Source: Paludibacteraceae bacterium (lineage in GTDB: Bacteria; Bacteroidota; Bacteroidia; Bacteroidales; Paludibacteraceae). From it: a stretch of DNA of 64,000 bases. The notes under the pieces are model-generated. The model ran no database searches, was not told the DNA's origin, and was given only the letters and a program-made list of their open reading frames with translations. Position 1 is the first letter of the stretch. The number at the start of each line of letters is the position of its first letter. Position numbers and translations under genes: made by a program. Shown piece after piece: positions 10,092 through 38,184 of this stretch. The stretch is from the NCBI GenBank assembly GCA_045598805.1, contig JAZLMS010000055.1:25086-89085 (forward strand), given 5' to 3'.

Positions 10092-11487
10092 CGATAGCGT
10101 TGATTTTAGCTTCTAAATCGTTCAAATCTTTTTTGAGACCATCAATCTTCTTCTGCATATCCTCTACCAGTTTATTGGCACTTTTGCTCTTTCCACTGAA
10201 GAAGAGGATATTATTTTCGGCAGTCTTAATCTCTTGCGTTAGGTTCTCGTACATACGAACGAGTTTATTGCGGTCGCCGGACTCCATAGCCTGTCGCCTA
10301 TTGCCTGTTGCCTTTTGCCTTTTATTCTCTTTCTCTTGTTCGCGTTTAGCGTTGAAGAACGAGTCGCATATATCCGAGAATTGTTTCCACACTTCGTCAC
10401 TATACTTGCGAGCTACGGGACCCACTTTCTTCCACTCTTGCTGGAGATTAATCAATGCCTCGGAGGTCTCTTTCCAAGCGGTACTATTCTTCAGTTCTTC
10501 CGCTTTGGCAATAAGTTCGCGTTTGAGACGCAGGTTCTCGCTGAAGGTATCGCGCAGACCTTTATAGAAAGCGGTTTTTGCCTTATAGAATGTGTCGCAA
10601 ACGGATCTATATTCCTCATATATAGCCTGATTATGCTTCTTCGGAGCAAAACCGATGGTGCGCCATTCGTTTTGTAGTTCGTCTATCATCTTTGAAGCAT
10701 CTTCCCATGCTTTATTGGACTTAAAAGAAGAGAAATCAATAGCTTTAATCTTGTCTATAATAGCCTGCTTGCGTTCGAGGTTTTCGCCTTCTTTGGCATG
10801 GAGTTCGTCGAAATAGGCTTGATGTTTCTTATTGATAACAGAGGATGCTTCTTTGAAGCGATTCCATATATCCTCGCGTAAATCGCGAGCTACAGGACCT
10901 ATCTCTGCCCATTCATCGTGCAGTTGTTGTAAAGCACGATTGGCTTCTACTATATTGGGATTCTCCTTCAACTTCTCAGCGGCTTCACAAAGGAGCGTCT
11001 TCAGTTCAAGGTTCTTCTTAAAGTCCAAGTCGCGAAGTTCGATATTGATCTTTACGAGGTCATAGAACTGCTCTTGATAGAGTTGATACTGCTTCCATAG
11101 TGTTTGCACTTGGGGTTGAGGAACGGCACCGATAGATTTCCATTCGGCTTGCAGGTCGCGCATCTTTTGGAGATTGCCCATCACATCCGCCGTTTCGGCT
11201 TGAGCCATAGTCTTCATTTGCTCCAAGATATTCTCTTTGCGTAGAAGATTTTGAGCCATCTGTGCCTCGGTAGCTTTGGTTACCTCAGCGCGTTTGGTCT
11301 TGTAAACCTGAAGCAGTTCACGGAACTGTTTCTCCGCCTCTTCGGTAAAGTTACTTACTCGGTAGAATTGGTTTTTCAGTTGTTCTACCTTCTCTTTTGC
11401 ATTCATGACAACTTCTGCAGACTGTTCTGCCAAGCCATCCACCAGAGTTTTCAACTCGTCAACGAGTGTTAATTCTTCGTTTTCCAT
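10078..11487 (-). CDS. DUF349 repeat protein
   Basis: Coiled-coil-rich with recurring EW(K/A/R)xIG(P/A)VP/ARD motifs (EWKSIGAVP, EWAEIGPVARD, EWRTIGFAPKK, EWKKVGPVARKY). Confidence 0.8.
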   Translation of the reverse strand: MENEELTLVDELKTLVDGLAEQSAEVVMNAKEKVEQLKNQFYRVSNFTEEAEKQFRELLQVYKTKRAEVTKATEAQMAQNLLRKENILEQMKTMAQAETADVMGNLQKMRDLQAEWKSIGAVPQPQVQTLWKQYQLYQEQFYDLVKINIELRDLDFKKNLELKTLLCEAAEKLKENPNIVEANRALQQLHDEWAEIGPVARDLREDIWNRFKEASSVINKKHQAYFDELHAKEGENLERKQAIIDKIKAIDFSSFKSNKAWEDASKMIDELQNEWRTIGFAPKKHNQAIYEEYRSVCDTFYKAKTAFYKGLRDTFSENLRLKRELIAKAEELKNSTAWKETSEALINLQQEWKKVGPVARKYSDEVWKQFSDICDSFFNAKREQEKENKRQKATGNRRQAMESGDRNKLVRMYENLTQEIKTAENNILFFSGKSKSANKLVEDMQKKIDGLKKDLNDLEAKINAIDAAD

Positions 11488-11523: not shown

Positions 11524-11531
11524 CAAATTTA
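11524..11531 (-). promoter_or_regulatory. Bacteroidota -7 box (TAaaTTTG on the minus strand) for the DUF349-ftsE operon
   Basis: Plus-strand caaattta is the reverse complement of TAAATTTG, about 37 nt upstream of the ATG at 11487. Confidence 0.5.
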
Positions 11532-11563
11532 CACTTTTTTTTGCATATGTGCAAATTTTTTCG

Positions 11564-11634: not shown

Positions 11635-12741
11635 ATGATAACTATCGAACAACTTAAAGACGTACAAGTCCGTGCAGACAAACTCAAACAGTATCTCGCT
11701 ATTGACGAGAAGCGTATTCAACTCGAGGAGGAGGAACTCCACACCCAAGCCCCGGGCTTTTGGGACGACCCTAAGGATGCCGAGGCGCAGATGCGTAAGG
11801 TTAAGGGTATCAAACGCTGGATAGAAGGCTATGAGGGCGTTCGTTCGACAACGGACGAACTCCAACTCGCCTTTGATTTCTACAAGGACGAACTCGTTAC
11901 CGAAACAGAGGTCGATGATGCTTATGCTAAGGCAGTGACGGCAGTGGAGGATTTGGAAATGAAGAACATGCTTTCCCATGAGGAGGACGCTATGCCCGCT
12001 GTTCTTAAGATTGTGAGCGGTGCCGGAGGCACAGAGGCACAGGACTGGGCAGAGCAGCTCATGCGTATGTACCAGCGCTATTGCGAAAAGCATAATTACA
12101 AAGTCACTGTCTCTAACTATCAGGAGGGTGATGCCGCCGGCATTAAGACGGTCACTTTCAATATTGAGGGAGAGATGGCATATGGTTATTTGAAATCGGA
12201 GAATGGTGTCCACCGTTTGGTGCGTGTTAGTCCGTATAACGCTCAGGGCAAGCGTATGACCTCGTTTGCGTCCGTCTTTGTTGTACCATTGATTGATGAT
12301 AGCATTGATATTCAGGTTGATCCGGCGGGTATCAGTTGGGACACGTTCCGTTCATCGGGTGCCGGAGGTCAGAATGTGAATAAGGTTGAGTCGGGTGTAC
12401 GTTTGCACTATAAGTTCATTAACGTGCTGACGGGTCAGCCGGATGAGATAGTGATTGAGAACACCGAGACCCGCGACCAGCCCAAAAACAGAGAGAACGC
12501 GTTGCGTCACTTGCGCAGTCAACTTTATGAGTTAGAATTGGAGAAACGCCGTCAAGCAGCAGCTAAGGTGGAAGCCGGTAAGAAAAAGATTGAGTGGGGT
12601 TCGCAGATTCGGTCTTATGTCTTTGATGACCGTCGTGTAAAGGATCATCGCACCAATTACGAGACGCATAATGTGGATGCCGTTATGGACGGTGATATAG
12701 ATGCTTTCATCAAAGCTTACCTCATGGAGTTCCCTGATTAG
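11635..12741 (+). CDS. prfB: peptide chain release factor 2 (single uninterrupted frame)
   Basis: GGQ motif (SGAGGQNVNKVESGVRL). RF2-type tripeptide region reads VSPYNAQGKR. The N-terminus aligns to E. coli RF2 across the frameshift site with no interruption (LKQYLAIDEK). Confidence 0.95.
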   Translation: MITIEQLKDVQVRADKLKQYLAIDEKRIQLEEEELHTQAPGFWDDPKDAEAQMRKVKGIKRWIEGYEGVRSTTDELQLAFDFYKDELVTETEVDDAYAKAVTAVEDLEMKNMLSHEEDAMPAVLKIVSGAGGTEAQDWAEQLMRMYQRYCEKHNYKVTVSNYQEGDAAGIKTVTFNIEGEMAYGYLKSENGVHRLVRVSPYNAQGKRMTSFASVFVVPLIDDSIDIQVDPAGISWDTFRSSGAGGQNVNKVESGVRLHYKFINVLTGQPDEIVIENTETRDQPKNRENALRHLRSQLYELELEKRRQAAAKVEAGKKKIEWGSQIRSYVFDDRRVKDHRTNYETHNVDAVMDGDIDAFIKAYLMEFPD

Positions 12742-12745
12742 TCAA

Positions 12746-13996
12746 TCATTTAAATACCGCATAATAGGTTACTGAGTGGGTCACCACCCTATCACCCGCG
12801 GTGGTGAATATGTCCGATGGAGCATTAGAGGGATTGAAGTAATTTGCTTGCTCCGTCCAACCTTGGAACTCTTTTCCATCACAAGCGGCAGGTTGCTCCG
12901 AATGACCATCAACATTCTCCGGCATTACCAATGCCGAACCTACATCCACCCTTTGACGCAGCCACTCAGTACCGCCGAACATCCAAATGACGGTCGCTTG
13001 TTGCTTATCGGTGGGAGTATAAGACTCGGAATCCCATGTTTTATGAACGTCGTTATTGTTTAGATTAAATGTTTGTCCTGCTTTACAGCCCCAGATATAC
13101 TCTGCCAATTCGGGTAGGTCGATGAAGGGGTTACGGTTGCCTTGTATTTTTTCTACACCGTTATTGCGGTTTATCTCTTTGGCAGAAACGGCATCACCGC
13201 GTGTCCAGTTCATCATAAGCGCTATGCCGTAGGGGGTAAAGCCGTAGAGACCCTCAGCGGTATAAACGCCGCTAAACACATATTGACCATACTCCTTGGT
13301 GAAGGGTTGATAGTCCCATTTATCGGCATTATCACTATCTATATTACCATCTAAATCTGCCCACGTGAGGAGGGTGGCAAAGTATCCGCGTGCGAGGTCG
13401 CCCTTGTAAGCCTCAGTAGGTTCAAAGACCTTGGACGAGCCGGTGTATGTAGCGGAAGTGATGTTGTTCAACAATGAACCTCCTGTCACAATAATCGCTT
13501 CTGCCGTACCGCAGAGGCATGTAGAGTTAGAGAAGGTTTTTGCGCCTTCGGCTGCCACCTCGCCGTAAGGGAGGTTATTGTGGGTGGAGTTGATATAACC
13601 ATCTACAGGGAAGATGTGCATCAGGTCAGCACCGGGGGTATTGGTTTTGGTTCCGCCGCCGAACCATGATTTAGGAATGGAGTGCTCGCGGTTGTAGGAC
13701 GTACCCTCTCCACGGATGATAGCACCCTGCGCAGGACCTCCGGGTACAAATTGATTACTTTCCGAATAGATATCCCAGATATACCCATCGGGGCGCACAT
13801 CAATCTCGCAATAGGCTTGCCATATACCGGGGGTATAAGTGGTAGTTCCTCTCAAATTGTCACGCAGCACTTTTTGTACTGCAGCCACGAGGTCGGCACC
13901 GGATTTGCCATTAAGGTCGGAATAATAGTTGTTATCAACCGCCCAAGCGTTGATTGTTGATGCTGTCAGTAGCAGCAAGAGATTTATTTTCTTCAT
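12746..13996 (-). CDS. secreted Endonuclease I family nuclease with a C-terminal Listeria-Bacteroides-repeat-like module
   Basis: Internal ATG at 13996 gives MKKINLLLLLTASTINAWA, a signal peptide. Endonuclease_1-like motifs NREHSIPKSWFGG and DLMHIFPVDGYINSTHNNLPYGEV. C-terminal FQGWTEQANY...TYYAVFK. Confidence 0.75.
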   Translation of the reverse strand: MKKINLLLLLTASTINAWAVDNNYYSDLNGKSGADLVAAVQKVLRDNLRGTTTYTPGIWQAYCEIDVRPDGYIWDIYSESNQFVPGGPAQGAIIRGEGTSYNREHSIPKSWFGGGTKTNTPGADLMHIFPVDGYINSTHNNLPYGEVAAEGAKTFSNSTCLCGTAEAIIVTGGSLLNNITSATYTGSSKVFEPTEAYKGDLARGYFATLLTWADLDGNIDSDNADKWDYQPFTKEYGQYVFSGVYTAEGLYGFTPYGIALMMNWTRGDAVSAKEINRNNGVEKIQGNRNPFIDLPELAEYIWGCKAGQTFNLNNNDVHKTWDSESYTPTDKQQATVIWMFGGTEWLRQRVDVGSALVMPENVDGHSEQPAACDGKEFQGWTEQANYFNPSNAPSDIFTTAGDRVVTHSVTYYAVFK

Positions 13997-14323
13997 AATC
14001 TTTGATTTATTATCGTGTTTTACAAACCCTACTCCTCTACCCCCTACTCCCCTACTCTTAATAATGCCGTAGGCGGCAGCCAAGGCGAGTAGCACCCATA
14101 CACCATTACCGATTGGCATATCCGGACCTTCGGGGTATCCAGGCAACTCATCATCGTCATAAACATCACCCCACGGGTCGTCTTCTTGGGGACTTCTATT
14201 GGGTCCGCCGGCGCGGTAACCGGTTGTTTCGTAATATTGGTCTGATGTGGTATATAATTGCTCCGGACTTGAGTTTGGTAATGTCAAACCTATTTGCAGT
14301 AAGATTAAAAGTAGCGTTTTCAT
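13997..14323 (-). other. 109-codon in-frame 5' extension of the nuclease ORF: signal-peptide-like segment, acidic/Pro-rich segment, TM segment, basic linker
   Basis: The ATG at 14323 overlaps the TGA of the giant gene (ATGA). Reads MKTLLLILLQIGL...DDPWGDVYDDDELPGYPEGPDMPIGNGVWVLLALAAAYGIIKSRGVGGRGVG. There is no stop before the nuclease ATG. Confidence 0.35.
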
Positions 14324-17300
14324 TTCGTTACCTCCTTTCCTTCGGCATTAAAGGTTGTGCCATTAACGATGATATAAATATGTCCGTCTTTAAGCATTTT
14401 CAGTCCGTCGCCTATTGCCCTTCCTCCTCCACCGTCATCAATATCGGTAGGTGCTTTGTTTTGACGAATGGCATTAATAGCGAAGCGGTTTTCTACGGCT
14501 CCGGCGGGAGCGGAGAAGATATAGTCGTCATGTAACAGATTGGTTACCGCACCATTCTCGTAGTCGTACAAGTAAAGTCCTTCGAGGTCATCCACCCTAC
14601 TCGATTCGCGGAGCGAGAAAGTGTATTCGCTTTCTGCGGGTGTACGGAGGTTGAGTGGGATAAGGGTTCGAGCGGTCTCGTCATCGACGGCGAGGTAAGC
14701 CATCTTCGTTTCGTCCGCCATCAGCCAAGCGCGGAGGTCGTTAGCGGTACCGAGTTCTTTGCTCAGGTCTGCATTTATCTCATAGTCGTTCGTATGTTGC
14801 GGACCGACAATAAGTCCGAAGCGGTCGTGCATACTTGCGCCCGCGAGGTTGATATAGGCCTTCTGTTCGGGGTTCACGTTGGCGAGCAGATAAGCGGGAG
14901 CCTGTGAAGGCGATGTACGAGGGATGGTAATTGGTTTCGTCACACCGGCTTGTACAAACACGCCGTAGAACGGGCGGATTTCCGTATCGTTATCATCCAC
15001 GGCTATTTGTTCATAACCATCTACTGTATTGGTAGGAACGGTGATATACATAAACTCGTCATTGAATGACGGAATTGCGCTCATATAGGGGTTTGCGATA
15101 AAGTTCCACGCTTTGTTCACGTTCTGAACACTCTCGTCATCTACGCCCCAAGCCGTTACTATCACTTGATTCTTTATTATCGTTGTAGTTTCCTCTTCTT
15201 CCGTTTTTGTAATTGTTATTTGTCCTTGTTCGCCGTTGGTTGTCCAAGCGTTATCTACGCTGTTCATCGAGAAGCGTAGTGATGCGTGTGTCTCGCCTTT
15301 CAGTTTCTTCGCCGTTACGATATATCCGATAGAAGGTTCTATCCAATCGCCGTTTTTGAGAGCCTTCCAGTATTTGGTTGTTGTTTGTGACTGCTTAGCG
15401 CGTTCCTCACCGTTATAGGTTGCAATATTAAAGCCTGTTCCTATTTGTGAAGACGCATCTACGGTTGGTCGAGAAGTGAAGCGCACAGAAGCCATCGTTG
15501 CGCGGAACGGCAGAGCCATCGGAGCATAATTGCCGGAACTGAGGTCGAGGTAATAATATACCGTCTTCAGTTTGGTTAGCAAGGACGCGTTGGAAGCGAT
15601 ATTGAGGCTTGGCACATTGTAGGAGGCAGCATTATCATCGGTTATACCACCATGGAAGACGAGTTGGTTAATAGTAAGCGTACATCCGTTTATCACTACG
15701 GCTGCCCCACTGCGTATATCCAGATTATGAATCGTTGCATCGGCATTTACCGTTAGTGTACCCGAAGTCACCACAATATCGAGGTTCTTGGCATCTACAT
15801 CTTCGGTCAGCAACGAACTTAGTGTAATGTCACTCTTTGCGCAGGCGGGAGTAACTACTGAACCGGTGGCAACCAATTTACTATCCTTGTACCACTGCAA
15901 CTGAATCCTCTGCTGCGTTCCAAAGGTTGTGGAAGAAGTCACATTATAAAGTTCGAAAGTGGGAGTACAAGTAGCCGTCTCAGCCGCATCTTCGTTGACG
16001 ATTAAATGGAACGCATCATGAGTCGGTATTGTTTCCGTCGTTGTAAAGGAGAAGGCGGTTTCCGTCCAGTTCGTTACCGTAATTGGTATTGTAGTAGTTG
16101 AAGTTGTAACCTTAAAGATACGGAAGAGAGTATCGTTAGTAGTTCCCGTTGCGAACATTCCGAACTTATTAGAACTATTGAACTTGAGGCTATTATTAGC
16201 CGCAGTATTGACAAAGGTAAAGGACGAGTTGTCGGTAGTGAGCAGTGTCCATAGTGAACGATTTTCCGTATCGTCACTTATTTTGCCAACTTTGATCTTC
16301 GTTTGTGCCGATGTGGTAGCACTGGTTAGCAAGGCGGTGGTGTCGGTTGGTGTCAAACGTATATGCCCGTTATCCTCTATTACATCACCGAGGTGATAGA
16401 CGGCACTTTGCGGAGCGGTAGCGTTATCTCCATTAACCGTTATCTCATAACCGGAATAGGTATTGAATGCGGTTATATCTGCCGGTAGGGCGTACCACTT
16501 ACTATCCGAACCTTGGTGAGCAATAACGAAGTCGTCTGGCAGTGATGTTCCGCGTACTTGGAATTGAACTTGTTTTTGATTTGGTTCTTCTCCAATGGTG
16601 GCGGTCATTGTTGCGTTACGGTTAACGTTTTGGGCGTTAGGGGTAAATTCAATTGCCACAGTAGCATTGAGACCCGTTTCCGCGTTCGCCTCGGCATTGG
16701 TGATAACAGCATGTAATTTACCATTAGAATTACTATCGTTCACAATCGTCAGTGTTCCCGTTGTTATATCGGGACAAGAGATATGTATTGTTTGCGAGGA
16801 GCGAATGGTCTTGCCTTTTGCGGAAGCGACATAGAGTGTCTTGGGCGTACAAACGAGTTGTGGATCCGACCAAGTGGCGATAGCTGTTACGTCGTGTGAG
16901 AGTTTATATGAGTCACCGGCATTATATTCAACTTCATTGATTGTCCAATGCTCGAAATGCTTGCCCGCCATCGTTGGTGTCGGCAGGGTAATTACTTGAC
17001 CAATGGGATCCGCTTGTTTTGCGGTTGCAGGTGCAGGAGAGTCATCTCCATTGGTAAAACTCATTGTTGCCGTTGCTGCCATGTTGCAGTTTGTTGAGTA
17101 GTCGGAGAACCAATAGCGGTTTACACACGAGAATGTAAAGCTCGATATTTCAGCTTTATATGTAGTACTCTGAGCCTCAGACGATGCTTGAATACGTACA
17201 TAATAGTCACCACAGTTTTCCAAAGTTGCAGTTAAAGTGCCTGTTTCTGGGCTAATACTATTCATTGCTATAGATTGTTGTTTAACCCAATTTTCACCAT

Positions 17301-20300
17301 CCTCTGAAATTTGGATGGCTAAAGTAACTTTGTTACTGCTCTTATTGAAATTAACTTTAACCTCCTTTAAGTCGTAAATCTTTCGGTCGGTGATGATAGT
17401 GGCAGGTTGTTCTAATTTAGTGGAAGTTTGGAAATTACCACCAACAGTTTGTGTAACATTCGTAACCTCGAACCTCATATTCTTTCCGCTATACTCATCC
17501 GTATTCGTCGAGAACATTTCACTCGGTGTTTCTGTGATAACTTTATAATATGCACCCTCCCGAACCTTTCCTCCGTTCTCTGCGGCATAGACGGCATAGA
17601 GGTTCACATCGCGGTCAAAGGTTTGGGTGGTGAAGGCCACTAATGCTGGAGCCTCTTGTCGTAATGTAGTCACTTTGTTCTCGCTCCAACCAATAAAGCG
17701 TTTAGTGCTGCACCCTTCCGCCGGACGATAAGGAATAGCTTTGCCGTCTTGTCCTAATTCGTAGCTATACTCGGGTTCTTCCTCTGTATCCGTAGCGAAG
17801 TAGTGAACATATAACGCGCAAACCGGATTAGTGGTGTAAGAAGGAGCCTTCTCCGAAACGGGATTCTGACGATCGGTATATATGGAATAACGAGGATTAG
17901 TACCATTATTATAGTTAAACCTCAGATAACGATTGCTTCCGCCTATATTTGTTTTGATAGAAGTTTTCCCATCTTCTGTGGCTATCGTCCAAACGGTAGC
18001 ATTCTCCACTTTGGTTGTTAGCAAATTATAAGTTTTCTGACTTGTTCCTTGTTCATTCGCTTGCAAATAAGCCAAAGTATCGCCGGAATGGTAGTACAAC
18101 TTTCCACTATTATTATAGAGCACCAATGCTTGCGCTTTGTCGGTTACGGCGCTGAAGTAGCGATTGGTCGAACCGGATACATACTTACCCAAGTAGTAGG
18201 TCGTCTCGTTATTGACCGTACTGAGGACGAAGCCTTCCGTTTCCAATCCGTCATAAGAATAGATGGCGTAGAAAGTGTCCTTATCAACATGAGGAACAGT
18301 GTAGGTTGTGAATATCTCCGAGTGAATTTGTGTAGTATCATTGATTGCCTTCTTAGTCCATCCTACAAAATTCCACACATTCACATTCGCCACATTGGGC
18401 AACTCAATCTCGCTGTTCCAATCAACCCTTTGCATTGCGGGTGTTGTCACACATTCGGGCACTACAAAGGTGATGGTATCTTGTTTTGCGCGGTTTGTTA
18501 GAGTATCAACAACGTTATAGGACGGCATTCTAAAGCCTCTTGTCTTAGAAACGGTATCGCGACTGGTTTCGCTGAATACCAAATAGCGGTTCGAGGTGCT
18601 GTAGCCATCATTCGCATAACCCGATAATGTAATCGTATCATTAAATGCGTAATAGTCATTCTTATCCAAACGGCCGTTAATCATATCCACGCTCTTAACG
18701 CGATAGACAGGTGTAGGAATGGTGACATATTTTGTTCCGATATGTTGATAGATAGCGAGGTCAGGAGTGGTTATATCTTGCAGCCTATAGCAAGCAAAGA
18801 AACCGTTCTCGCCCATGCTTAAGGTGTTATGTGTCGTCGTAGTGGTTGCAACTACACTCTTAGCCGTTGCACGTCCAGAAGCGTCAATAGCAAGGGTAAA
18901 ACAAGCAGAGGCTGTCTTACTGCCTGTCAAACTCAATTTATCCTTACCGCCACTTGGGGCTGCAAGATATTTCGTACTTTCACCATTTTGCTTGAAGGAC
19001 CATTCTCCAACATGATCTTTACTGTCGCTGGCATCGAGTATCCACTCTTGCACATCCTTACCAAAGGTAATCGTTTCTGCGTCATCGTTTTTGGTAACGA
19101 CGATAGCGGGCAGGGTGTCTTGTCCTGCAATGAACTCTTTACCCATCGCATAATCCTCGTCGATGGAGGCGAGTACTACGTGCGCGCCCAAGCGCAAATC
19201 CTTAATATCTTTAATGAGTTGGTATGTGGCATCACCTTGGCGGTAGAGGGCGTAGAGTGTTTCGCCGGCGGTCGTTGGCAAATATGTCTCACCCGCAGCA
19301 ATAAAGTCGTTAGGTAGATCGGTGACAGCCTCTGTGAGTTGCGTCTTGGTGAAACCGATAAAGATATTATTGACGGCACCTTGCGCGCCCTCCGGAACAG
19401 TCGTTGGCAGTACCACACCCGTCTCGGGAACGTCCATCTGGGTTGATATATTGTTATAGTTAAGGGTTATCGTCCAGTTGGTATAGGTGGCGGTGAGAGT
19501 AACATCGCTCGCCGGCATCGTGTAAGTCGAACCGGCAGCATAAGTGTTTCCATTTCCATCGCTCCAGCCATTAAACGTCTTACCAGCAACGACTTTGCCA
19601 GAGGGGAGAGTAATGGTAGTACATTTAGGACCGCTTATTTGTTCGTCACAATCCGTCGTATAACCATTGTAATGGAACGTAACGACTACAGTGGGATCGT
19701 AGGAATCATAATTAGCCGGACAATCAGTATTATTTTCTCCAAAAGCAGTGATGGTACACCTATTCCAAGTGCCATCAATAGATTTGTTGCTCGTTTGGTT
19801 CCACTTATCAGTCCAATTGGGTGTCTCACAAGTATTCTTCAATCGCACAAAGTTAACATATTCATATCCTTGTGGAATAGTAGTTCTGTAAATAGCATCA
19901 CAATCGCCATAATTGGTCATAAACTCTGACCAGCCATTATCTGTTTCGCTATTGAAATAATAAACTGCAAACTTAGCACTCCCTTTATCCCACAGTTCCG
20001 AGCCTCCGGCATCTAAATAGAGAGTGGTTCTCGCCACCGTCCATTGGGCATAAACTATCTTGTCCGCAGCGATGGGTTCTGTAGAAATCCACGGAGAGGT
20101 ACATTCTTGGTCTGTAAACCAACCAGCAAAATCATAACCGGTAGTAGTCGGTGTGGCTGGTAGTGTGGCAAGTGCTTCTCCATGAGTAGTATATCGGATA
20201 ATATCGGCTCCATGACCATTGAGATTAAAGGTCACAGCAACAGAGGCGGGGTAATCAACAGTTATATTTAGGGTTGTACTTAATTCGCCTTCTTCCGTTG

Positions 20301-22716
20301 CGTGGAATGTATATTCACCGGCAGAGGTTGTTGCGATTCCGCAGTCATATTGATTATTCTGATGAATTTTCCAATCAGTATGACTATCTTTTGTCATTAT
20401 ATTGCCATTAGTTGATAGACCATACTTAATACTTACGCCATCTGTATAACGAAACCAATATGTTGTATTTGCCTCTAACTGAACGGAATATGTCAAATCG
20501 CTATTGATTATATGAGGAGCATAATTATCTACACCACAAAGGAATGTCCAACCGACAATCCATTTAGCATAGAGGGTGATATCTCTCGTCACAATATCAT
20601 TAGCAAAATCCCATGCATTTTCACAAGTAGGCTCTTTATACCAACCACTAAATGCCCATCCAATAGCCGCCGGTGCGGAAGGCGCTGAGGTTGTTGTATT
20701 ATGCGTTACTTCTTTGGAAACCACTTGCGCTCCGTGCCCTTGATTATCAAAAGACATTGTCCACGTTGGAACGGTGCAAGTCGTAGAATAAGAGGTGTAT
20801 GTAATATTATTTTCAATTACAATACTATCAATCTGAACTTGAGTCGTATTACTATTCGCATTCCCTATAACAAAAGAAGTGGCCTTGATAGTATAACTTC
20901 CGTCTGTTGCAGTAATCTGATTTTCCCCTACTTTTACAAAGAATTTATTATAACTATTCTTCGCATATACCTTTATACCAGGTATCGTCACTCCCGCTAA
21001 GGAAGTTACGGTAATGGTATTGCCTCCATTGGCGTTTCCATAGAGGGCGATATAATTATCATTGTTCAATCCGGGTAAACTGCTACCACTATTTTTAACG
21101 CCCACTACTGACCATTTATGTTCATCTAACCCCAATATGGCAGCATCGTTATTGCCGGTCATATTTATGGTTATCCCTCTGCTATATGCCAGTTTAGTGG
21201 TGAATGTCTCTTCACTATTTTTGCTCAGTTGTGCAAACACGGCATAATAGGTTATATCTGCTGTAACCTTTTTGTCTCCGGCCTCGGTAAAGAGATCTGA
21301 AGGTCTCTCCGTACTACTGCTATAATTTTGTGTTGCCGTCCAACCGATAAAGTGATTTCGGTCACATGGTTGAGGATTGGCAGTAGGCATTACTAATGCG
21401 TTATTATAAGTATAGTCCGTTTTAGAGTCGTGCTTTACCCCATCCGCCATCCAAGTTACGGTGTATTCGTCCGAAATAGCATTTACCGCAATAGAAGCAT
21501 TATCACCGGTTATCGTCACATGCAATGTACCGGAAGTGGCGTCTTGGTCTAATGCAGGAGACCATTCGGCAGTACATCCCGACGCAGTAACTTTACTATT
21601 TAATTTATATCCCTCATCGGCAGAGATAGTGAGGTTAAATGCCGTCCCCGATTCTTGTAAACATGTAGGCCATGAACCGGAAGAAAGGGAGCAATTGGTA
21701 TAGGTTGCCTCTCCGATAGAGTATAGGTTGCTTAAAGAGCCATAGCCTTTACCGTTGGCGTCACCAGTATTCCCCCACCCTTGTAACTTAATTAAGTTAT
21801 TATTAGTTATGTCGAAGTCAACGGATTGTCCCCAGAAGTTGTCACCACTCCAACCGGAAGGTTGTGTTGCAGAAGGACTAAAGCGACCAATGGTTATTTT
21901 GTTACAAGATGTAGGAATATCGTCATAATAATAACCCGACTCACTTCCTATTCCTTCTGTTGCAAAATTTGTCATCCATTGTCCATTAGTAGCATCATAA
22001 ATACCTGTTTTAGCATTATCTTTTTTCCAATCATTAAATAGTGATATATATATCCTTTTTGTCGTAGGAGCAACTTCTGCTTCGTAGAAATTAATGCTGT
22101 CAATCATGAAGTAACAGTTATTCGCTGATGAAGCTGATGTTTCGACTTTATAATTAACTGTTATCTTGAAAAAACTCTTTGCATCCCAAGATCCTTCGTC
22201 TAAAGTAAAATCTAATGTGCCTGCAGAACTAACAGAAGGGTTGTCAATTTGTTTTGTTTTTGAAGATTCGAAAACAGATGAAATAGAACCTTCGACTTTA
22301 ATTGAATTGATTGTGATAGTCGAATTTGCACCATTTGTTGTACCGTTATGATTGATTCTTACCTTGCTAATTGCTTTAGAAGAAATCTTTTCCTGCGATG
22401 TAATAGGGCAATCCGTTTGCGTTTTATTTTTACCTCCCACTCTAACTCCAATACCAGATCCGGTTTTTTGATCTCCTTGTACTAACCAACTGATATTTTC
22501 GTATTTATAAGAATGTTGATTCGTATAACTATCAATTTTTTCCCCCGTATTTAATTTACTAAATACAAGCGTATAAACCGGAGTTTCCTCTCCCCACACA
22601 TTCCCACTCAAGACAAGTGCAAGTAAGAGGGTGAGGGTCTTAATGAGCGTCGCAAGGGTGCGAAGTGGATAGGGGGGGGGTCTTTTGCCCCATTCGCAAC
22701 AAATTTCGATTCGCAA
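14320..22716 (-). CDS. giant (about 2,800 aa) cell-surface protein with multiple Listeria-Bacteroides (Flg_new-like) repeats; candidate T9SS or adhesin-type cargo
   Basis: Uninterrupted 8.4-kb ORF. Signal peptide LIKTLTLLLALVLSGNVWG/EE. At least 7 xxGW(T/S/Y/F)...(Y/L)YA(V/I/K/Q)(F/W/Y) modules. Ser/Thr/Asn-rich beta-type sequence. C-terminal tail KMLKDGHIYIIVNGTTFNAEGKEVTK. The tracked start (22716) is TTG; see the G9 tract. Confidence 0.85.
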   Translation of the reverse strand: MRIEICCEWGKRPPPYPLRTLATLIKTLTLLLALVLSGNVWGEETPVYTLVFSKLNTGEKIDSYTNQHSYKYENISWLVQGDQKTGSGIGVRVGGKNKTQTDCPITSQEKISSKAISKVRINHNGTTNGANSTITINSIKVEGSISSVFESSKTKQIDNPSVSSAGTLDFTLDEGSWDAKSFFKITVNYKVETSASSANNCYFMIDSINFYEAEVAPTTKRIYISLFNDWKKDNAKTGIYDATNGQWMTNFATEGIGSESGYYYDDIPTSCNKITIGRFSPSATQPSGWSGDNFWGQSVDFDITNNNLIKLQGWGNTGDANGKGYGSLSNLYSIGEATYTNCSLSSGSWPTCLQESGTAFNLTISADEGYKLNSKVTASGCTAEWSPALDQDATSGTLHVTITGDNASIAVNAISDEYTVTWMADGVKHDSKTDYTYNNALVMPTANPQPCDRNHFIGWTATQNYSSSTERPSDLFTEAGDKKVTADITYYAVFAQLSKNSEETFTTKLAYSRGITINMTGNNDAAILGLDEHKWSVVGVKNSGSSLPGLNNDNYIALYGNANGGNTITVTSLAGVTIPGIKVYAKNSYNKFFVKVGENQITATDGSYTIKATSFVIGNANSNTTQVQIDSIVIENNITYTSYSTTCTVPTWTMSFDNQGHGAQVVSKEVTHNTTTSAPSAPAAIGWAFSGWYKEPTCENAWDFANDIVTRDITLYAKWIVGWTFLCGVDNYAPHIINSDLTYSVQLEANTTYWFRYTDGVSIKYGLSTNGNIMTKDSHTDWKIHQNNQYDCGIATTSAGEYTFHATEEGELSTTLNITVDYPASVAVTFNLNGHGADIIRYTTHGEALATLPATPTTTGYDFAGWFTDQECTSPWISTEPIAADKIVYAQWTVARTTLYLDAGGSELWDKGSAKFAVYYFNSETDNGWSEFMTNYGDCDAIYRTTIPQGYEYVNFVRLKNTCETPNWTDKWNQTSNKSIDGTWNRCTITAFGENNTDCPANYDSYDPTVVVTFHYNGYTTDCDEQISGPKCTTITLPSGKVVAGKTFNGWSDGNGNTYAAGSTYTMPASDVTLTATYTNWTITLNYNNISTQMDVPETGVVLPTTVPEGAQGAVNNIFIGFTKTQLTEAVTDLPNDFIAAGETYLPTTAGETLYALYRQGDATYQLIKDIKDLRLGAHVVLASIDEDYAMGKEFIAGQDTLPAIVVTKNDDAETITFGKDVQEWILDASDSKDHVGEWSFKQNGESTKYLAAPSGGKDKLSLTGSKTASACFTLAIDASGRATAKSVVATTTTTHNTLSMGENGFFACYRLQDITTPDLAIYQHIGTKYVTIPTPVYRVKSVDMINGRLDKNDYYAFNDTITLSGYANDGYSTSNRYLVFSETSRDTVSKTRGFRMPSYNVVDTLTNRAKQDTITFVVPECVTTPAMQRVDWNSEIELPNVANVNVWNFVGWTKKAINDTTQIHSEIFTTYTVPHVDKDTFYAIYSYDGLETEGFVLSTVNNETTYYLGKYVSGSTNRYFSAVTDKAQALVLYNNSGKLYYHSGDTLAYLQANEQGTSQKTYNLLTTKVENATVWTIATEDGKTSIKTNIGGSNRYLRFNYNNGTNPRYSIYTDRQNPVSEKAPSYTTNPVCALYVHYFATDTEEEPEYSYELGQDGKAIPYRPAEGCSTKRFIGWSENKVTTLRQEAPALVAFTTQTFDRDVNLYAVYAAENGGKVREGAYYKVITETPSEMFSTNTDEYSGKNMRFEVTNVTQTVGGNFQTSTKLEQPATIITDRKIYDLKEVKVNFNKSSNKVTLAIQISEDGENWVKQQSIAMNSISPETGTLTATLENCGDYYVRIQASSEAQSTTYKAEISSFTFSCVNRYWFSDYSTNCNMAATATMSFTNGDDSPAPATAKQADPIGQVITLPTPTMAGKHFEHWTINEVEYNAGDSYKLSHDVTAIATWSDPQLVCTPKTLYVASAKGKTIRSSQTIHISCPDITTGTLTIVNDSNSNGKLHAVITNAEANAETGLNATVAIEFTPNAQNVNRNATMTATIGEEPNQKQVQFQVRGTSLPDDFVIAHQGSDSKWYALPADITAFNTYSGYEITVNGDNATAPQSAVYHLGDVIEDNGHIRLTPTDTTALLTSATTSAQTKIKVGKISDDTENRSLWTLLTTDNSSFTFVNTAANNSLKFNSSNKFGMFATGTTNDTLFRIFKVTTSTTTIPITVTNWTETAFSFTTTETIPTHDAFHLIVNEDAAETATCTPTFELYNVTSSTTFGTQQRIQLQWYKDSKLVATGSVVTPACAKSDITLSSLLTEDVDAKNLDIVVTSGTLTVNADATIHNLDIRSGAAVVINGCTLTINQLVFHGGITDDNAASYNVPSLNIASNASLLTKLKTVYYYLDLSSGNYAPMALPFRATMASVRFTSRPTVDASSQIGTGFNIATYNGEERAKQSQTTTKYWKALKNGDWIEPSIGYIVTAKKLKGETHASLRFSMNSVDNAWTTNGEQGQITITKTEEEETTTIIKNQVIVTAWGVDDESVQNVNKAWNFIANPYMSAIPSFNDEFMYITVPTNTVDGYEQIAVDDNDTEIRPFYGVFVQAGVTKPITIPRTSPSQAPAYLLANVNPEQKAYINLAGASMHDRFGLIVGPQHTNDYEINADLSKELGTANDLRAWLMADETKMAYLAVDDETARTLIPLNLRTPAESEYTFSLRESSRVDDLEGLYLYDYENGAVTNLLHDDYIFSAPAGAVENRFAINAIRQNKAPTDIDDGGGGRAIGDGLKMLKDGHIYIIVNGTTFNAEGKEVTK

Positions 22717-22771
22717 CGCAAGTCATACGAGCTGATGCACGGTTGATGATGGATTGAAAAAAAGTTTTCAT
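22640..22771 (-). other. ATG-initiated 43-codon frame that would be the true 5' end of the giant gene with a tract length of 8 or 11
   Basis: ATGs at 22771, 22726 and 22693 share one frame: MKTFFQSIINRASARMTCVANRNLLRMGQKTPP. With C9 it ends at TAA 22642-22640. A -1 change in the tract joins it to YPLRTLATLIKTL... Confidence 0.55.
22672..22680. repeat. G9 (C9 on the coding strand) homopolymer in the 5' end of the giant gene
   Basis: Read directly as a ggggggggg t; encodes PPP in the tracked frame. Confidence 0.95.
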
Positions 22772-22772
22772 A

Positions 22773-22814
22773 TCGTTAGTTGTTAGTCGTTAGTTTTTAG
22801 TCGTTAGTTTTTAA
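22773..22814. repeat. 3 x 14-bp tandem repeat directly upstream of ATG 22771
   Basis: Plus strand: tcgttagttgttag / tcgttagtttttag / tcgttagtttttaa. Coding sense: AAAAACTAACGA-type A-rich leader. Confidence 0.9.
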
Positions 22815-23103
22815 CTACATCAACACAGACAACCCTACGGACAGCCACCGAAGAGCTACGCAAGTCCTACGGAAGTCCTATAATGCTACGGTAGTGCTAC
22901 GTTTACAGACACGGTGAAGATAGTGCAGACATCCGCAAATCCACCCACACAAAAAAAGAATCACTGCCTCTTGCGAGTACAGTGACACATACGCTAATAC
23001 CTTATTAAATAAAGGGATTCCATAAGCTGTAGTGTGTCCGTAGCTGTTTACTGTCTTATGTCAAAATTTATGTCAAATAGTGGATTTCCTTCGAAATCCG
23101 GTG

Positions 23104-23111
23104 CAAAGGTA
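23104..23111 (-). promoter_or_regulatory. Bacteroidota -7 box (TAccTTTG on the minus strand), candidate promoter of the giant gene
   Basis: Plus-strand caaaggta. Followed on the minus strand by a 7-bp hairpin (23082-23099). Implies a leader of about 330 nt to ATG 22771. Confidence 0.5.
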
Positions 23112-23185
23112 CAACTTTTTTTTAATCTGTGCAAATTTTTATTAACTTTTTCTGCATTTTTTCTGCATTTTTCCGCGAAGGTTGC

Positions 23186-23914
23186 TCACGCACATACGCG
23201 CGGAATATTCGCAAGCCACTTTAGGATAATCTTACCCGCTTTAGAGCAATGTTTGATATAAGAACCATGATCGGCATTGGGTACAATACAGAGATCCGCA
23301 TTGGGAATAGAAGAGGCTATCAGACGCGTGTGCTCCTCCGATATGGAGTCATGGTCACCCGCCATAATCAAACACGGACACGCTATCGTACCTAACTCCT
23401 CTACCGATATATGCGGCTCATCTAACATCATCAAGAATAACGGATTGGACTTGAACTCCTCCCTTAACTCCGCGTCCCTCTCGGCAAACTCAGTCACTCC
23501 GTCCGGCGTGATGTTAGCCCCACTCGTGATAATAGCCTTGAACAGACCCGGATGAGCTATCTCAGCCATAAGGGCTATATTACCACCGTCCGACCAGCCA
23601 TAAACAATCGGCTTATTGATACCCAAGGCTTGGCAGAAAAGATAGACATCTTCCGCCATGTCCGCATAATGATACTCGGTGATAGGTTCGTTAGCACCCT
23701 GACCGCGTGAGTCTAAAGCATAGACACGATAACCACGCAAAGCCAACTGAAGGAGTTGACGGCGCATCGACTTATGACTGCCGCCGTTGCCGTGAAGCAA
23801 GAGGAAAGGGTCGCCATTCTTGGGACCAAGGGTCACGTAATGGAGCGCGTAGGCTGTTTGGTTGTTGACGGAAATAGTTTTCATAAAGATACAGAGCATA
23901 ATTAGCAGTTTCAT
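23186..23914 (-). CDS. alpha/beta-fold hydrolase
   Basis: LLLHGNGGSHKSM (oxyanion region), nucleophile elbow GWSDGG, C-terminal ADH. The ATG at 23914 overlaps the upstream TGA (ATGA). An alternative ATG at 23884 gives MKTISV. Confidence 0.75.
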   Translation of the reverse strand: MKLLIMLCIFMKTISVNNQTAYALHYVTLGPKNGDPFLLLHGNGGSHKSMRRQLLQLALRGYRVYALDSRGQGANEPITEYHYADMAEDVYLFCQALGINKPIVYGWSDGGNIALMAEIAHPGLFKAIITSGANITPDGVTEFAERDAELREEFKSNPLFLMMLDEPHISVEELGTIACPCLIMAGDHDSISEEHTRLIASSIPNADLCIVPNADHGSYIKHCSKAGKIILKWLANIPRVCA

Positions 23915-24255
23915 TGTTGTAATGCGAGTTTGGCGGCTTCGCGGTAGGCGACGATCAGTCCACCCGTTCCAAGGAGCGTTCCTCCGAAATAACGCACAAC
24001 CACCACCAAGATATTATCCTTCCCCGCCGCATCAATCGCCCTCAAGATAGGCGCACCCGCCGTTCCGTGCGGTTCGCCATCGTCCTTCGTGCGCCATAGA
24101 TTGGGACCGAGACGATAAGCATAACACACATGACGCGCATCGTGGTACTTCTTCTTGTACCACGCAATGCGCGACTTGGCGTCGTCCTCAGAGGTGATCG
24201 GTTCAGCGAAGCTGATGAACTTACTACCGCGGTCTTTGTATATTCCGGTGTTCAT
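23911..24255 (-). CDS. IMPACT/YigZ-family (UPF0029) N-terminal-domain protein, short form
   Basis: KDRGSKFISFA...HDARHVCYAY...DDGEPHGTAGAPIL...VVVVRYFGGTLLGTGGL. Only 114 aa, with no C-terminal DUF1949-like part. Confidence 0.7.
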   Translation of the reverse strand: MNTGIYKDRGSKFISFAEPITSEDDAKSRIAWYKKKYHDARHVCYAYRLGPNLWRTKDDGEPHGTAGAPILRAIDAAGKDNILVVVVRYFGGTLLGTGGLIVAYREAAKLALQQ

Positions 24256-24299
24256 AGGGTTGAAAGGATGATTGGCTGAAAGGATGAAAGGCGGAGTGG

Positions 24300-25505
24300 T
24301 TAGAGACCAAGTTTTTTGCGGAGGTCTTTGGGGATGGCGTCCTTGTGAACAAGGATATCGTTCGTCTTATACTGCATGAACGCTTCGGAGATATACCATA
24401 TACCCTTATAATCGCTCTTTACCGCACCCCACGAGTTCTTAACCATATAATATTTCTTACCATTCTGATCCTTCGCCGTACCGAAAATCTGCAAACCATG
24501 GTCATCCGTCGTTCCCCACGTATCAAAAGCAATCTGACGCATCTGTTGGGTAATGGTCTTCTCAGGCAGCGGTTTCTCGGTGAGTTTCTCTTTCTTCTTA
24601 TCGGTGGACATATTAAGCCACTTAGCCATATCGGAGCCGGTCAAGTCGGCACCATTATCCTCATCAGGCACCACACCAATACCCTTGCGCGTGAAGCCGT
24701 TCTCACTAACATCGGCCCCCCACGCCATGGTATAACCATTGGCAATAGCGTTATCAATGATACGCATCAAGTCCTCCATCGGAACATTATACATCTGATC
24801 CATACGCCAGTTATCGGGCACCTCCAAAGCAAAGCGTGTGTAGAAAGGATGATGGGTATAAGAAGTAATAGACACATAATCGTCGGCATTAAGACCGAGG
24901 AACTGAACAAACGATTGAGGCGTATAGGTCTTACCCTCATACTCAAAGGTCTCTGGACACTTGCCTAAATAAGTGTCATAGATAGCTTGGAAAGCCTCTT
25001 TCCACACGGGAGTGAGAGTCTTTTGCGCATAGAGACCGTTGAGGAAACCTCTGGCTACTGCCACTAACTCGCCATGCACAGGCAGGGTGTCGGCAGGGGT
25101 GATACCATAACGCATACCTACCATAGCCGATTGGGGCACAAGACCATAGTTCTTCATGCAATAGATAACATCATAAGCACTACCTCCGGCAGCCCATTTG
25201 GCATCGCCGTACATACGAACACAGTACTCAGCACGATCCATCATGGTCTTGCTGACAACAAACATCTCGGAAAGGTCATAAACGCCCTTACCCATACGGA
25301 GGAGTTCGGATTCAATGAAACCGATGGTAGAGAATGACCAGCAAGTACCGGAGCGGTGCTGGTCTTTGATAGAGGTGATAGCTATGCTATCGACTGTAGT
25401 GAACACGAAACCGCTATCCTTAACGGTTGAATCAATTTTTGCAGGCTCTTGAGCCGCAAGACTGAGGCTGCACATTGCAGCCAAAATAAATGTAAGTGTT
25501 TTCAT
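24300..25505 (-). CDS. secreted C1-family cysteine peptidase (aminopeptidase C / bleomycin-hydrolase-like)
   Basis: Signal peptide; catalytic Cys context DQHRSGTCWSFS; PepC-like length. Confidence 0.75.
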   Translation of the reverse strand: MKTLTFILAAMCSLSLAAQEPAKIDSTVKDSGFVFTTVDSIAITSIKDQHRSGTCWSFSTIGFIESELLRMGKGVYDLSEMFVVSKTMMDRAEYCVRMYGDAKWAAGGSAYDVIYCMKNYGLVPQSAMVGMRYGITPADTLPVHGELVAVARGFLNGLYAQKTLTPVWKEAFQAIYDTYLGKCPETFEYEGKTYTPQSFVQFLGLNADDYVSITSYTHHPFYTRFALEVPDNWRMDQMYNVPMEDLMRIIDNAIANGYTMAWGADVSENGFTRKGIGVVPDEDNGADLTGSDMAKWLNMSTDKKKEKLTEKPLPEKTITQQMRQIAFDTWGTTDDHGLQIFGTAKDQNGKKYYMVKNSWGAVKSDYKGIWYISEAFMQYKTNDILVHKDAIPKDLRKKLGL

Positions 25506-36487: not shown

Positions 36488-38184
36488 TATTCAAGTAACA
36501 AATTCAGTTTATCTTTCATTGTTTGCAATGCCGGATGCGATTCCGCCAGTTGTTTATATTTTTCCTCTGCAGTATAAGCTATCTTGGATTTATCCAATAC
36601 TGCCACCTCTAATTTTAGTTGCAGTTTATCATTATGTAGAACCTCTCGCATATGGTTCATCACTTGACTTCCGTATTTTTTGAACTCATCCCGCTGCCAA
36701 GGATTAGCCAACTCCAGCACACACAAGGTCTCATCCACTAATTTAGGGCGATATTCGCTCAGCACAGCTAATAGACGCGCTTCATCCCTAAAGATGTCTT
36801 TAAGACCAGCCCACGCGTCATAGAACTGGTCATCTGTAAAAGGGGCAGAAGCCTCCTTTTTATCATTTAGTGCTGTACCCTGCTCTCTTATCGTCTGTTG
36901 CATTTTAGTATCCGTACTTTTCCCACCTTTTTCTCCAACATTAATAGACGGAATCGACGGCATTGACGGCATTGCGACAGGTTTTACGGTTGGCGGTACC
37001 TGAGTTTTTATTGATACTGAAGGTGTATTTGTCTGTACTACTTGCGCTCTTACCGGCATGGTCGATTGTTTGTTGTTTACTTCCGGTTTTCTATCGCCTA
37101 TCGTACACAACTTAATCAGCGCCAACTCCACCGTCAGCCTTTTATTTTTAGCTGTACGGTATTGAACATCACACGTATTGAGGATATCCAACGCCTGAAA
37201 CAACCATGGCGCTGCACAAGCGGCTGCTTGCTGTTGATACTGTTTCCTGATAGCATCGGAGGTTTCTATTAACGCAATGGTCGCAACATCCTTACTCATT
37301 AGCACATCCCTTAAATGTTGACTCATCCCTATCACAAAATGACCTGCGTCAAAACCTTTCTGCAACACTTCATTAAGCACTAATATCGCCTCTGTCACTT
37401 GTCCATGTAAAGCATAATCGACCAAACGGAAATAATAATCTGTATCCAATACATTGAGCACCTCTATTGCTCGTTCGTACGTAATTTCATTCCCCGAGAA
37501 AGCCACCAATTGGTCAAAGATAGACAACGCATCACGCAACCCTCCATCTGCTTTTTGAGCGACTACATTCAGGGCTTGCTCTTCGACAACAATGCCTTCA
37601 TGTTGAGCAATAAACTGCAAATGATGAATAATATCTGCTACCGTAATACGATTGAAATCATATACTTGACAACGCGACAATATTGTGGGCAACACTTTGT
37701 GCTTCTCGGTCGTAGCCAAAATAAAGATGACATACGAAGGAGGCTCTTCTAACGTTTTAAGTAATGCATTAAAAGCACCCTGCGAAAGCATGTGTACCTC
37801 GTCAATAATATAAACGCTATATTTGCCTATTTGCGGAGGAATATGTGTCTGCTCTATTAGCGAACGAATATCTTCCACTCCATTATTTGAAGCCGCATCT
37901 AACTCGTGGATATTAAACGAGCGCTGTTCGTTAAATGCCCTACATGACTCACACTCGTTGCATGCGTCATGCCCGTCCTTTGGATTAAGGCAGTTGATTG
38001 TCTTAGCAAAGATACGCGCGCACGTAGTTTTTCCCACACCACGCGGGCCACAAAATAAATAAGCATGCGCCAGATGGTTCTGGCGTATCGCATTTCGCAA
38101 GGTTTGGGTGAGGTTTTCTTGACCTACCACCGAATCAAAGGTTGTCGGACGGTACTTGCGAGCAGAAACTATATAATCCTTCAT
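36487..38184 (-). CDS. dnaX: DNA polymerase III subunit gamma/tau
   Basis: YRPTTFDSVVGQ, GPRGVGKTT, zinc module CNECESC, IIDEVHML, SRCQ. Confidence 0.9.
   Translation of the reverse strand: MKDYIVSARKYRPTTFDSVVGQENLTQTLRNAIRQNHLAHAYLFCGPRGVGKTTCARIFAKTINCLNPKDGHDACNECESCRAFNEQRSFNIHELDAASNNGVEDIRSLIEQTHIPPQIGKYSVYIIDEVHMLSQGAFNALLKTLEEPPSYVIFILATTEKHKVLPTILSRCQVYDFNRITVADIIHHLQFIAQHEGIVVEEQALNVVAQKADGGLRDALSIFDQLVAFSGNEITYERAIEVLNVLDTDYYFRLVDYALHGQVTEAILVLNEVLQKGFDAGHFVIGMSQHLRDVLMSKDVATIALIETSDAIRKQYQQQAAACAAPWLFQALDILNTCDVQYRTAKNKRLTVELALIKLCTIGDRKPEVNNKQSTMPVRAQVVQTNTPSVSIKTQVPPTVKPVAMPSMPSIPSINVGEKGGKSTDTKMQQTIREQGTALNDKKEASAPFTDDQFYDAWAGLKDIFRDEARLLAVLSEYRPKLVDETLCVLELANPWQRDEFKKYGSQVMNHMREVLHNDKLQLKLEVAVLDKSKIAYTAEEKYKQLAESHPALQTMKDKLNLLLE

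Follow-up and report, generated by a model that had tools for sequence, protein, structure and literature searches.

The question raised by this locus is why a giant and otherwise intact gene should have all of its ATG start codons out of frame with its signal peptide, and whether the homopolymer lying between the two acts as a genetic switch. The locus is carried on a 64,000-nucleotide (nt) stretch of DNA assigned to a Paludibacteraceae bacterium (GenBank assembly GCA_045598805.1, contig JAZLMS010000055.1, positions 25,086 to 89,085 of the forward strand), designated here as the window and numbered from its first letter. A first-pass annotation of the window had drawn attention to a run of nine cytosines at the 5′ end of a gene of some 2,800 codons, predicted to encode a surface protein, and had proposed that slipped-strand mispairing within this run turns translation of the gene ON and OFF. 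The analysis presented here leads to a graded version of this proposal: the gene appears to carry a hypermutable 5′ poly-C tract that probably functions as a slipped-strand switch and was sequenced in its ATG-off state, an assessment that we hold at even confidence.

A direct read of the sequence places nine C residues at 22680-22672 on the minus strand, which is the coding strand (G9 at 22672-22680 on the plus strand). A scan of the 64-kb window showed that this candidate slippage site is the longest homopolymer present and the sole G/C run of at least 8, the next-longest G/C runs being a C7 at 40471-40477 and a C6 at 24716-24721. On the coding strand, the tract is flanked as GAATGGGGCAAAAGA-C(n)-TATCCACTTCGCACCC and sits in the context ...cga ATG GGG CAA AAG ACC CCC CCC C TA TCC ACT..., such that the nine residues read as CCC CCC CCC (three prolines) in one frame and as ACC CCC CCC C.. 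in another. The first of these frames belongs to the giant open reading frame (ORF) at 14320-22716 on the minus strand, which as sequenced encodes 2,798 amino acids (aa) without internal stops. Its first start codon is a TTG (22714-22716), the sole start codon from which the long frame can be entered ahead of the signal peptide at C9, and the frame is closed upstream of the TTG by a TGA at 22722-22720. The second frame is common to three ATGs with first bases at 22771, 22726, and 22693; it encodes the peptide MKTFFQSIINRASARMTCVANRNLLRMGQKTPPLSTSHPCDAH* and runs into a TAA at 22642-22640 after 43 codons, yielding a truncated ‘off’ product (22640-22771, minus strand). The ORF listing and these translations bear out the first-pass placement of the tract between the start region and the signal peptide, of the TTG at the head of the long ORF, and of the three ATGs in one other frame that is terminated by the TAA.

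Simulation of tract lengths from C5 to C13 then defined how each length connects the four candidate starts to the long ORF. At C5, C8, and C11, the ATG frame joins YPLRTLATLIKTLTLLLALVLSGNVWGEE... and the product is a protein of 2,815, 2,816, or 2,817 aa, respectively; at C6, C9, and C12, the TTG frame alone stays open; and at C7, C10, and C13, all four candidate starts are cut off from the long ORF. The earlier claim that loss of one C or gain of two would bring the ATG frame into register with the signal peptide is exact in this simulation. The tract follows the start and precedes the hydrophobic core of the signal peptide, so that any frameshift within it is a complete null for translation from the ATGs. 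Two of the features that define a homopolymer contingency locus, namely, a tract length of about 7-8 or more G/C residues and a frame-switching position, are found here, the decisive ones being length polymorphism and high-frequency, reversible switching.

What the restored frame reads into is consistent with export of the product. The segment at 22591-22671 (minus strand) encodes the basic end of an n-region, a hydrophobic core, and a cleavage-like site (YPLRTLATLIKTLTLLLALVLSGNVWG | EE), and is followed at 22045-22590 by a conserved N-terminal domain of ~180 aa that is 46-54% identical to the homologous proteins P0001-P0004. In P0004 and in P0001 with its start corrected, this domain likewise stands directly after an ordinary signal peptide, in agreement with the first-pass description of the restored sequence as a normal signal peptide. 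An AlphaFold model of the domain (predicted local distance difference test, pLDDT, of 83) shows a beta-sandwich whose fold weakly matches carbohydrate-binding modules.

G/C runs of at least 8 are prone to slipped-strand mispairing during replication, as is well known from Campylobacter, Neisseria, Haemophilus, Helicobacter, and Bordetella, and the run in question is of a kind that is rarely encountered in this order. From base composition or a first-order Markov model, ~0.13 G or C runs of at least 9 are expected in 64 kb. The observed decay of run lengths is steeper: the window contains 338, 51, and 6 G runs of length 3, 4, and 5, and none longer until the 9, and extrapolation of this decay predicts ~0.01 runs of 9 per window. 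In 1.56 Mb of other Bacteroidales loci, 89, 6, 3, and 2 runs of length 6, 7, 8, and 9 were counted, a rate for 9-runs of ~0.08 per 64 kb, and both of the 9-runs are intergenic. The probability that a 9-run falls by chance within the ~90-nt stretch between start and signal peptide of the largest gene is lower still, and we estimate it at roughly 1e-4. Given the fast decay of run lengths and the solely intergenic location of the 9-runs found elsewhere, a 9-run in the 5′ end of a coding sequence is rare in this clade.

A second line of evidence concerns the start codon, since the switch as proposed requires that translation normally begins in the ATG frame. Initiation in Bacteroidetes does not rely on Shine-Dalgarno pairing; rather, low structure and A residues at -3, -6, -12, and -13 matter, and a start codon benefits from having A as its first base, whereas a U at position 0 is a negative determinant (PMC6847099). 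The first ATG (22769-22771, minus strand) is preceded by A at -6, -12, and -13; A makes up 50% of the 20 nt upstream, and the local folding energy is -3.5 kcal/mol, values that make it indistinguishable from 25 other genes of the window (mean of 46% A upstream, folding energy of -2.6 +/- 2.2 kcal/mol). The context of the TTG is poor, with U at position 0, none of the four A determinants, 20% A upstream, and a folding energy of -6.1 kcal/mol. The ATG at 22693 lies within a hairpin of -10.3 kcal/mol in which GGGG is paired to the tract. Immediately upstream of the first ATG, and abutting it, is an A/C-rich 5′ leader (22773-22814, minus strand) composed of three tandem 14-nt units, or six heptamers of the form CTAACGA/CTAAAAA. 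The leader is rich in AACTAAC, and AACTAACAACTAAC recurs 22 nt upstream of the true ATG of P0001 (L098, 397-410); the AACTAAC motif shows no general enrichment in the window. Being a short tandem repeat, the leader could in turn vary in copy number.

The architecture of related proteins points in the same direction. Four distant homologues of the giant protein (P0145, P0146, P0147, and P0149) carry n-regions of 17-38 aa that are rich in Met, Asn, and Lys and contain several in-frame Met residues, followed by a hydrophobic region and an AWG cleavage site. The N-terminus restored by a one-base change, MKTFFQSIINRASARMTCVANRNLLRMGQKTPPYPLRTLATLIKTLTLLLALVLSGNVWG, is built in the same way. Taking together the leader, the initiation context, and this family architecture, the ATG at 22771 is most likely the native start. 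Unusually long pre-signal regions with multiple in-frame ATGs characterize this family of giant genes with Listeria-Bacteroides (Flg_new) repeats, including those located from 3001 onward in L102 and L103, and may represent an ‘extended signal peptide’ class in Bacteroidales.

How the tract might operate can be outlined as follows. The poly-C tract would lie within the n-region of an extended signal peptide, and replication slippage would alter its length. At C8 or C11, the ATG frame would continue through the signal peptide into a preprotein of 2,816 or 2,817 aa (ON). At C9, ribosomes initiating at the ATGs would stop after 43 codons and the weak TTG alone could feed the long frame, leaving expression off or very low, and at C10 no product would be possible. 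Termination this early, 8.3 kb before the end of the predicted operon described below, would probably also lower expression of the downstream nuclease gene through polarity. From the sequence, then, we infer that the length of the tract changes at high frequency, that such changes are reversible and under selection, and that the ATG is the start codon in use. The first-pass proposal of an ON/OFF switch holds in its frame arithmetic, its signal peptide, and its preference for the ATG frame, but the switch may not be cleanly binary, since the TTG at C9 keeps a usable signal peptide; C9 may therefore correspond to low expression, with C10 as the true null. A bolder variant is a three-state rheostat, with strong ATG initiation at C8/C11, weak TTG initiation at C9/C12, and no product at C10, acting on a giant glycan-binding surface protein and, through polarity, on a secreted nuclease; it would constitute the first documented slipped-strand contingency locus for a surface protein in Bacteroidales. 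It is enticing to speculate along these lines, and we regard this variant as doubtful.

Several observations weigh against a slipped-strand switch at this locus. The TTG product at C9 still begins with a plausible signal peptide, and C9 need not be OFF at all. Between the terminator of an upstream small RNA and the ATG, no canonical Bacteroides promoter was found; the only upstream match to TTTG-N17-23-TAnnTTTG (23135-23104) belongs to the separately terminated small RNA, and what remains is, at best, a one-mismatch -7 box at 22837. When compared with the n-regions of the homologues, the ATG-frame peptide shows a similarity that is not significant against shuffled sequences (z = 1.3, p = 0.11), and the likeness therefore supports the ATG frame by architecture only. 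Same-species contigs (95.6-99.5% identity, recruited via coaD) end at ~24,200-24,990, some 1.5 kb or more before the tract is reached, and searches of 5.8 billion protein clusters, GTDB genomes, and JGI metagenomes returned no orthologue of the giant gene. The starts of the homologous genes in L098, L102, and L103 are unshifted and devoid of any G/C run, showing that the tract is not a family feature. Full-text literature searches yielded no report of homopolymer-driven phase variation of a surface protein in Bacteroidales, and a lone tract that is prone to mutation may be ‘accidental’ and not an evolved switch (PMC11868660).

One rival explanation is a recent, one-off inactivation, in which a C8 tract gained a single C and the gene would be a young, mutation-prone pseudogene rather than an evolved, reversible switch. 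Such an origin gains from the orphan status of the gene, from its position in a variable spot that holds different cargo in relatives, from homologues without the tract, and from the published warning that accidental tracts can mimic phase variation (PMC11868660). Against it stands the state of the remainder of the gene. The 8.4-kb ORF is otherwise intact, hence any inactivation must be very recent; the frameshift is thus either recent or reversible. C8 and C9 runs are also strongly avoided in the clade, which argues for maintenance of this one, and reversion by slippage is mechanistically as likely as the forward event. We judge a one-off inactivation to be unlikely, albeit a serious contender, and a one-off frameshift or a miscalled C8 would fit the sequence equally well.

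A miscall is the other such contender, by which the true tract would be C8 (or C11) and the gene constitutively intact. Indel errors are commonest at homopolymers, the source seems to be a metagenome-type contig that carries no annotation, and a change of one base repairs the gene perfectly. Against this, the window can serve as its own internal control. Its 46 stop-to-stop ORFs of at least 150 aa cover 98.8% of the sequence with no gene visibly split, and ~40 runs of 6-8 bases, including a C7 and a T8, lie within intact ORFs. Long runs in intact frames together with the lack of split genes indicate that the assembly has no general homopolymer problem, and this pattern is unlike that of an error-prone long-read assembly. 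Were the tract variable in the population, moreover, a C9 consensus would still represent a real majority allele. An error of this kind strikes us as improbable, in about the same measure as a one-off inactivation.

Less probable than either is the absence of any switch, with translation starting at the TTG (22716), the tract contributing Pro-Pro-Pro to the n-region, and the upstream ATG frame being non-coding. In the C9 frame the tract indeed amounts to exactly three CCC codons, and in the predicted product, (M)RIEICCEWGKRPPPYPLRTLATLIK..., a net positive n-region precedes the hydrophobic core, which would make it export-competent. The TTG, however, ranks last among the four candidates in initiation context; the A-rich AACTAAC leader adjoins the ATG at 22771 instead; and it is only in the other frame that three in-frame ATGs and a Met-rich n-region fit the architecture of the family. 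We therefore rate this explanation as a distinctly minor one.

Recoding at a fixed C9 is very unlikely. Here, a +1 shift of tRNA-Pro on CCC_CCC_C ahead of a slow codon, or transcriptional slippage along the C run, would generate a low, constitutive level of full-length protein. The +1 direction is precisely the shift needed to pass from the ATG frame to the long frame, re-pairing from CCC to CCC is perfect, and CCC-C sites are +1-prone, as is familiar from work on EF-P and m1G37. The next codon in the ATG frame, CTA, is the rarest Leu codon of the window; at the site CCC_CCC_CUA, however, this codon, while accounting for 6.9% of Leu, is used at 5.7 per 1,000 codons and is not very rare. The shift site is conserved in none of the homologues, the starts in L098, L102, and L103 being unshifted, and no stimulatory element was identified. 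Spontaneous shifting on CCC-C normally amounts to ~1% or less, and transcriptional slippage is efficient mainly on A/T runs. Nor does the window give any sign of a +1-prone translation system, as prfB is a single unshifted ORF. The prfB gene, for release factor 2 (11635-12741, plus strand), is an uninterrupted ORF of 368 aa that covers the whole of TIGR00020 and has no programmed +1 frameshift site; according to PMC10798248, Bacteroidia prfB genes typically keep this site.

Least probable, and rejected here, is the usual Bacteroidales mechanism (PMC11868660), an invertible promoter segment with the tract as an incidental neighbor: a 15-nt inverted repeat (22752-22766 / 23113-23127; 14 of 15 positions paired) does bracket a 346-nt upstream region that includes a -7 box, but such repeats occur at chance frequency (two seen against ~2.6 expected per window), one arm is an A8 spacer that recurs in the canonical promoters of this genome, including that of tRNA-Thr, the bracketed promoter belongs to a conserved small RNA with its own terminator, inversion would remove the ATG, and no recombinase was found among the scanned ORFs of the window, with a trans-acting invertase elsewhere in the genome being possible. 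The other 15-nt inverted repeat with at most one mismatch, at 41827-41841 / 41948-41962 (TGCAAAATTACAATA / TTTTGTAATTTTGCA, 106 nt apart), overlaps back-to-back promoter-like matches (41823-41860) in the short gap between an amidase gene (40813-41820) and an ORF at 41865-42404.

If the tract at 22672-22680 does act as a slipped-strand switch, its closest parallels lie outside the Bacteroidales, and 5′ homopolymer switches of surface-protein genes are well documented there (PMC2831843, PMC11868660). In the literature searched, phase variation in this order is attributed to invertases (PMC11868660), and for a C4/C5 run in a Bacteroides fragilis acetyltransferase gene slippage was only speculated upon (PMC3090145); the first-pass remark that switches in this order are known mainly through invertases agrees with both sources. 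Like the invertible promoters of the Mpi/Tsr type, the tract would confer stochastic on/off surface expression, and in the same order of bacteria; their mechanism, in contrast, is recombinase-mediated inversion between inverted repeats, and neither a significant repeat nor a recombinase was found at the tract locus. A close match in gene structure is inlA of Listeria monocytogenes, in which a 5′ poly(A) tract is subject to frameshifting (Orsi et al. 2010, PMC2831843). In both cases a homopolymer lies among the initial codons of a gene for a large surface protein, a shift of frame leaves no more than a very short peptide, and the protein belongs to the world of internalins and Listeria-Bacteroides repeats, to judge for the giant protein from its Flg_new match. 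For inlA, indels restore the frame at a rate ~1,000-fold above that of point mutation. The inlA tract, unlike the C9 considered here, is an A7 in a Firmicute, and its variation was measured and found in several strains, whereas the present case is built on a single sequence.

In the nature of the tract, a further comparison is with the poly-G/C contingency loci of Campylobacter jejuni, Neisseria, Haemophilus, and Helicobacter (PMC11868660, PMC8355987). These loci, too, combine a G/C run of at least 8 with a 5′ coding position in a gene for a surface or host-interaction function; their ON lengths differ by 3, and sequenced genomes often capture an OFF length. They differ in number, as species of this kind harbor tens of tracts per genome (the ‘phasome’), several of these species being devoid of mismatch repair, whereas a single tract, with no sign of a repertoire, is present in these 64 kb of an uncultured Bacteroidales bacterium. 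Finally, the NanH3 sialidase of Gardnerella (cited in PMC11868660) offers a recently recognized precedent for a 5′ homopolymer switch in a secreted, glycan-directed protein of a commensal outside of the classical model pathogens; in that case, sequencing of colony variants provided the validation, and both the phylum and the protein are different.

The protein encoded by the giant gene appears to belong to an exported, surface-exposed class, as judged from its signal peptide, its repeats, and the carbohydrate-binding-module-like fold of its N-terminal domain. Profile searches identified Listeria-Bacteroides repeats in three stretches (PF09479, Flg_new; E = 4e-36, 123 bits against a cut-off of 27), and homology searches aligned the C-terminal 900 aa, which include a domain specific to the family, with proteins of 1,400 aa at 25-35% identity. 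A C-terminal motif, ...TGKKV..INK, is common to three of the six C-terminal homologues (P0145-P0147). The sorting-domain models of the type IX secretion system (TIGR04183 / PF18962) gave no match at E<=1 to the whole protein or to its last 200 or 800 aa. The genes for PorU and PorV are present in the window, and the host is an uncultured rumen/gut Bacteroidales bacterium with a type IX secretion system. Its placement among the Bacteroidales is confirmed by AlaS, whose best matches, at 76% identity, come from uncultured rumen Bacteroidales (RUG715, RUG13776) and from Paludibacteraceae metagenome-assembled genomes (MAGs). In relatives, giant Flg_new genes are arranged as tandem pairs, in which a protein of ~2,100-2,170 aa is followed by one of ~1,400 aa, together with a small sorting-signal-like gene.

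Downstream of the giant gene and co-oriented with it is an ORF of 525 aa (12746-14323, minus strand) that encodes an Endonuclease_1 domain and ends in a Flg_new-type C-terminus. The start ATG of this ORF and the stop codon of the giant gene overlap (ATGA), suggesting an operon and making co-transcription of the two genes probable. The first ~117 aa of this nuclease ORF, which contain a signal peptide, an acidic region, PIGNG, a hydrophobic helix, and KSR, are similar to separate genes of 125-135 aa that end in ...P(L/I)GD-TM-RRKRA* and follow the giant genes of relatives (L102, 7280-7657; L103, 7192-7599). The C-terminal motif is reminiscent of a PEP-CTERM-style sorting signal. The nuclease proper starts with a second signal peptide, MKKINLLLLLTASTINAWA. 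The nuclease ORF thus appears to be an in-frame fusion, which a lost stop codon or an internal start of the nuclease might explain.

Directly upstream of the giant gene lies a candidate gene for a conserved small RNA (22950-23135, minus strand). It combines a strong Bacteroides-type promoter (TTTGCACAGATTAAAAAAAAGTTGTACCTTTG) with a 5′ hairpin and an invariant core of 40 nt (CATAAGACAGTAAAC...CACACTACAGCTTATG, 23060-23021), the ends of which pair into a stem of 6-7 bp; a variable segment and a GNRA-capped terminator hairpin followed by T7 make up its 3′ part. The same architecture is found in two syntenic relatives (L087, and L088 at 10730-10910) and, in other contexts, in nine JGI metagenome contigs (L089-L097), and because the core is invariant, covariation is uninformative. 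A search of Rfam 15 returned no match in 22300-23400 at E<=1, and tRNA-Thr alone in the whole window. Five spaced copies of CGTAG(C/G)A lie between the terminator of the small RNA and the leader of the giant gene (22830-22905, minus strand); the corresponding place in the two syntenic relatives (L088, 11519-11573; the end of L087) is occupied by a tandem CACGTAGCACC x5 array and a copy of CACGTAGCAC. These copies may be regulator-binding or integrase-arm-binding sites that border a variable region.

Matches to the promoter pattern TTTG-N17-23-TAnnTTTG number 10 in the window, against 1.8 expected. Four intergenic copies, at 11524-11555 (minus), 23104-23135 (minus), 39603-39633 (minus), and 56690-56721 (plus), share the extended form TTTGCA..(A)8G..GTAC.TTTG. 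Of the five A8/T8 runs in the window, four are explained by this form, and the other (57623-57630) lies within an ORF. One of these extended promoters drives the tRNA-Thr gene (56752-56825), and another, the canonical strong promoter at 39603-39633, lies upstream of dnaA. The presence of dnaX, dnaA, and dnaB (36487-39632 and 46718-48241) suggests that the window adjoins the chromosomal replication origin.

The giant gene itself has the distribution of accessory cargo. The restored N-terminal 667 aa, used as a protein query, gave domain-level matches only, at up to 54% identity, and the genomes closest by AlaS share gene order with the window only as far as lplA and contain no homologue of the giant gene. 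The region downstream of an alpha/beta-hydrolase gene and the small RNA (window 23186 onward) is a variable spot: in L086, whose hydrolase gene is ~90% identical, the downstream sequence is unrelated, and in L088 the hydrolase gene and the small RNA are followed by toxin-antitoxin-like and DUF262-like genes. It is this occupation of the same spot by different genes in relatives that identifies the giant gene as cargo. Its GC composition shows no anomaly that would mark it as foreign.

For this gene, the immediate consequence is that an annotation as TTG-initiated or as a pseudogene is probably wrong, the product being restorable by a change of one base. If validated, the locus would modestly extend a textbook mechanism to a new order rather than define a new kind of system. 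If the tract does vary, it would follow that Bacteroidales can use replication slippage in addition to DNA inversion to diversify their surface, and that in MAGs such switches go unrecognized, passing for 5′ truncations or for odd TTG starts of giant adhesin-like genes.

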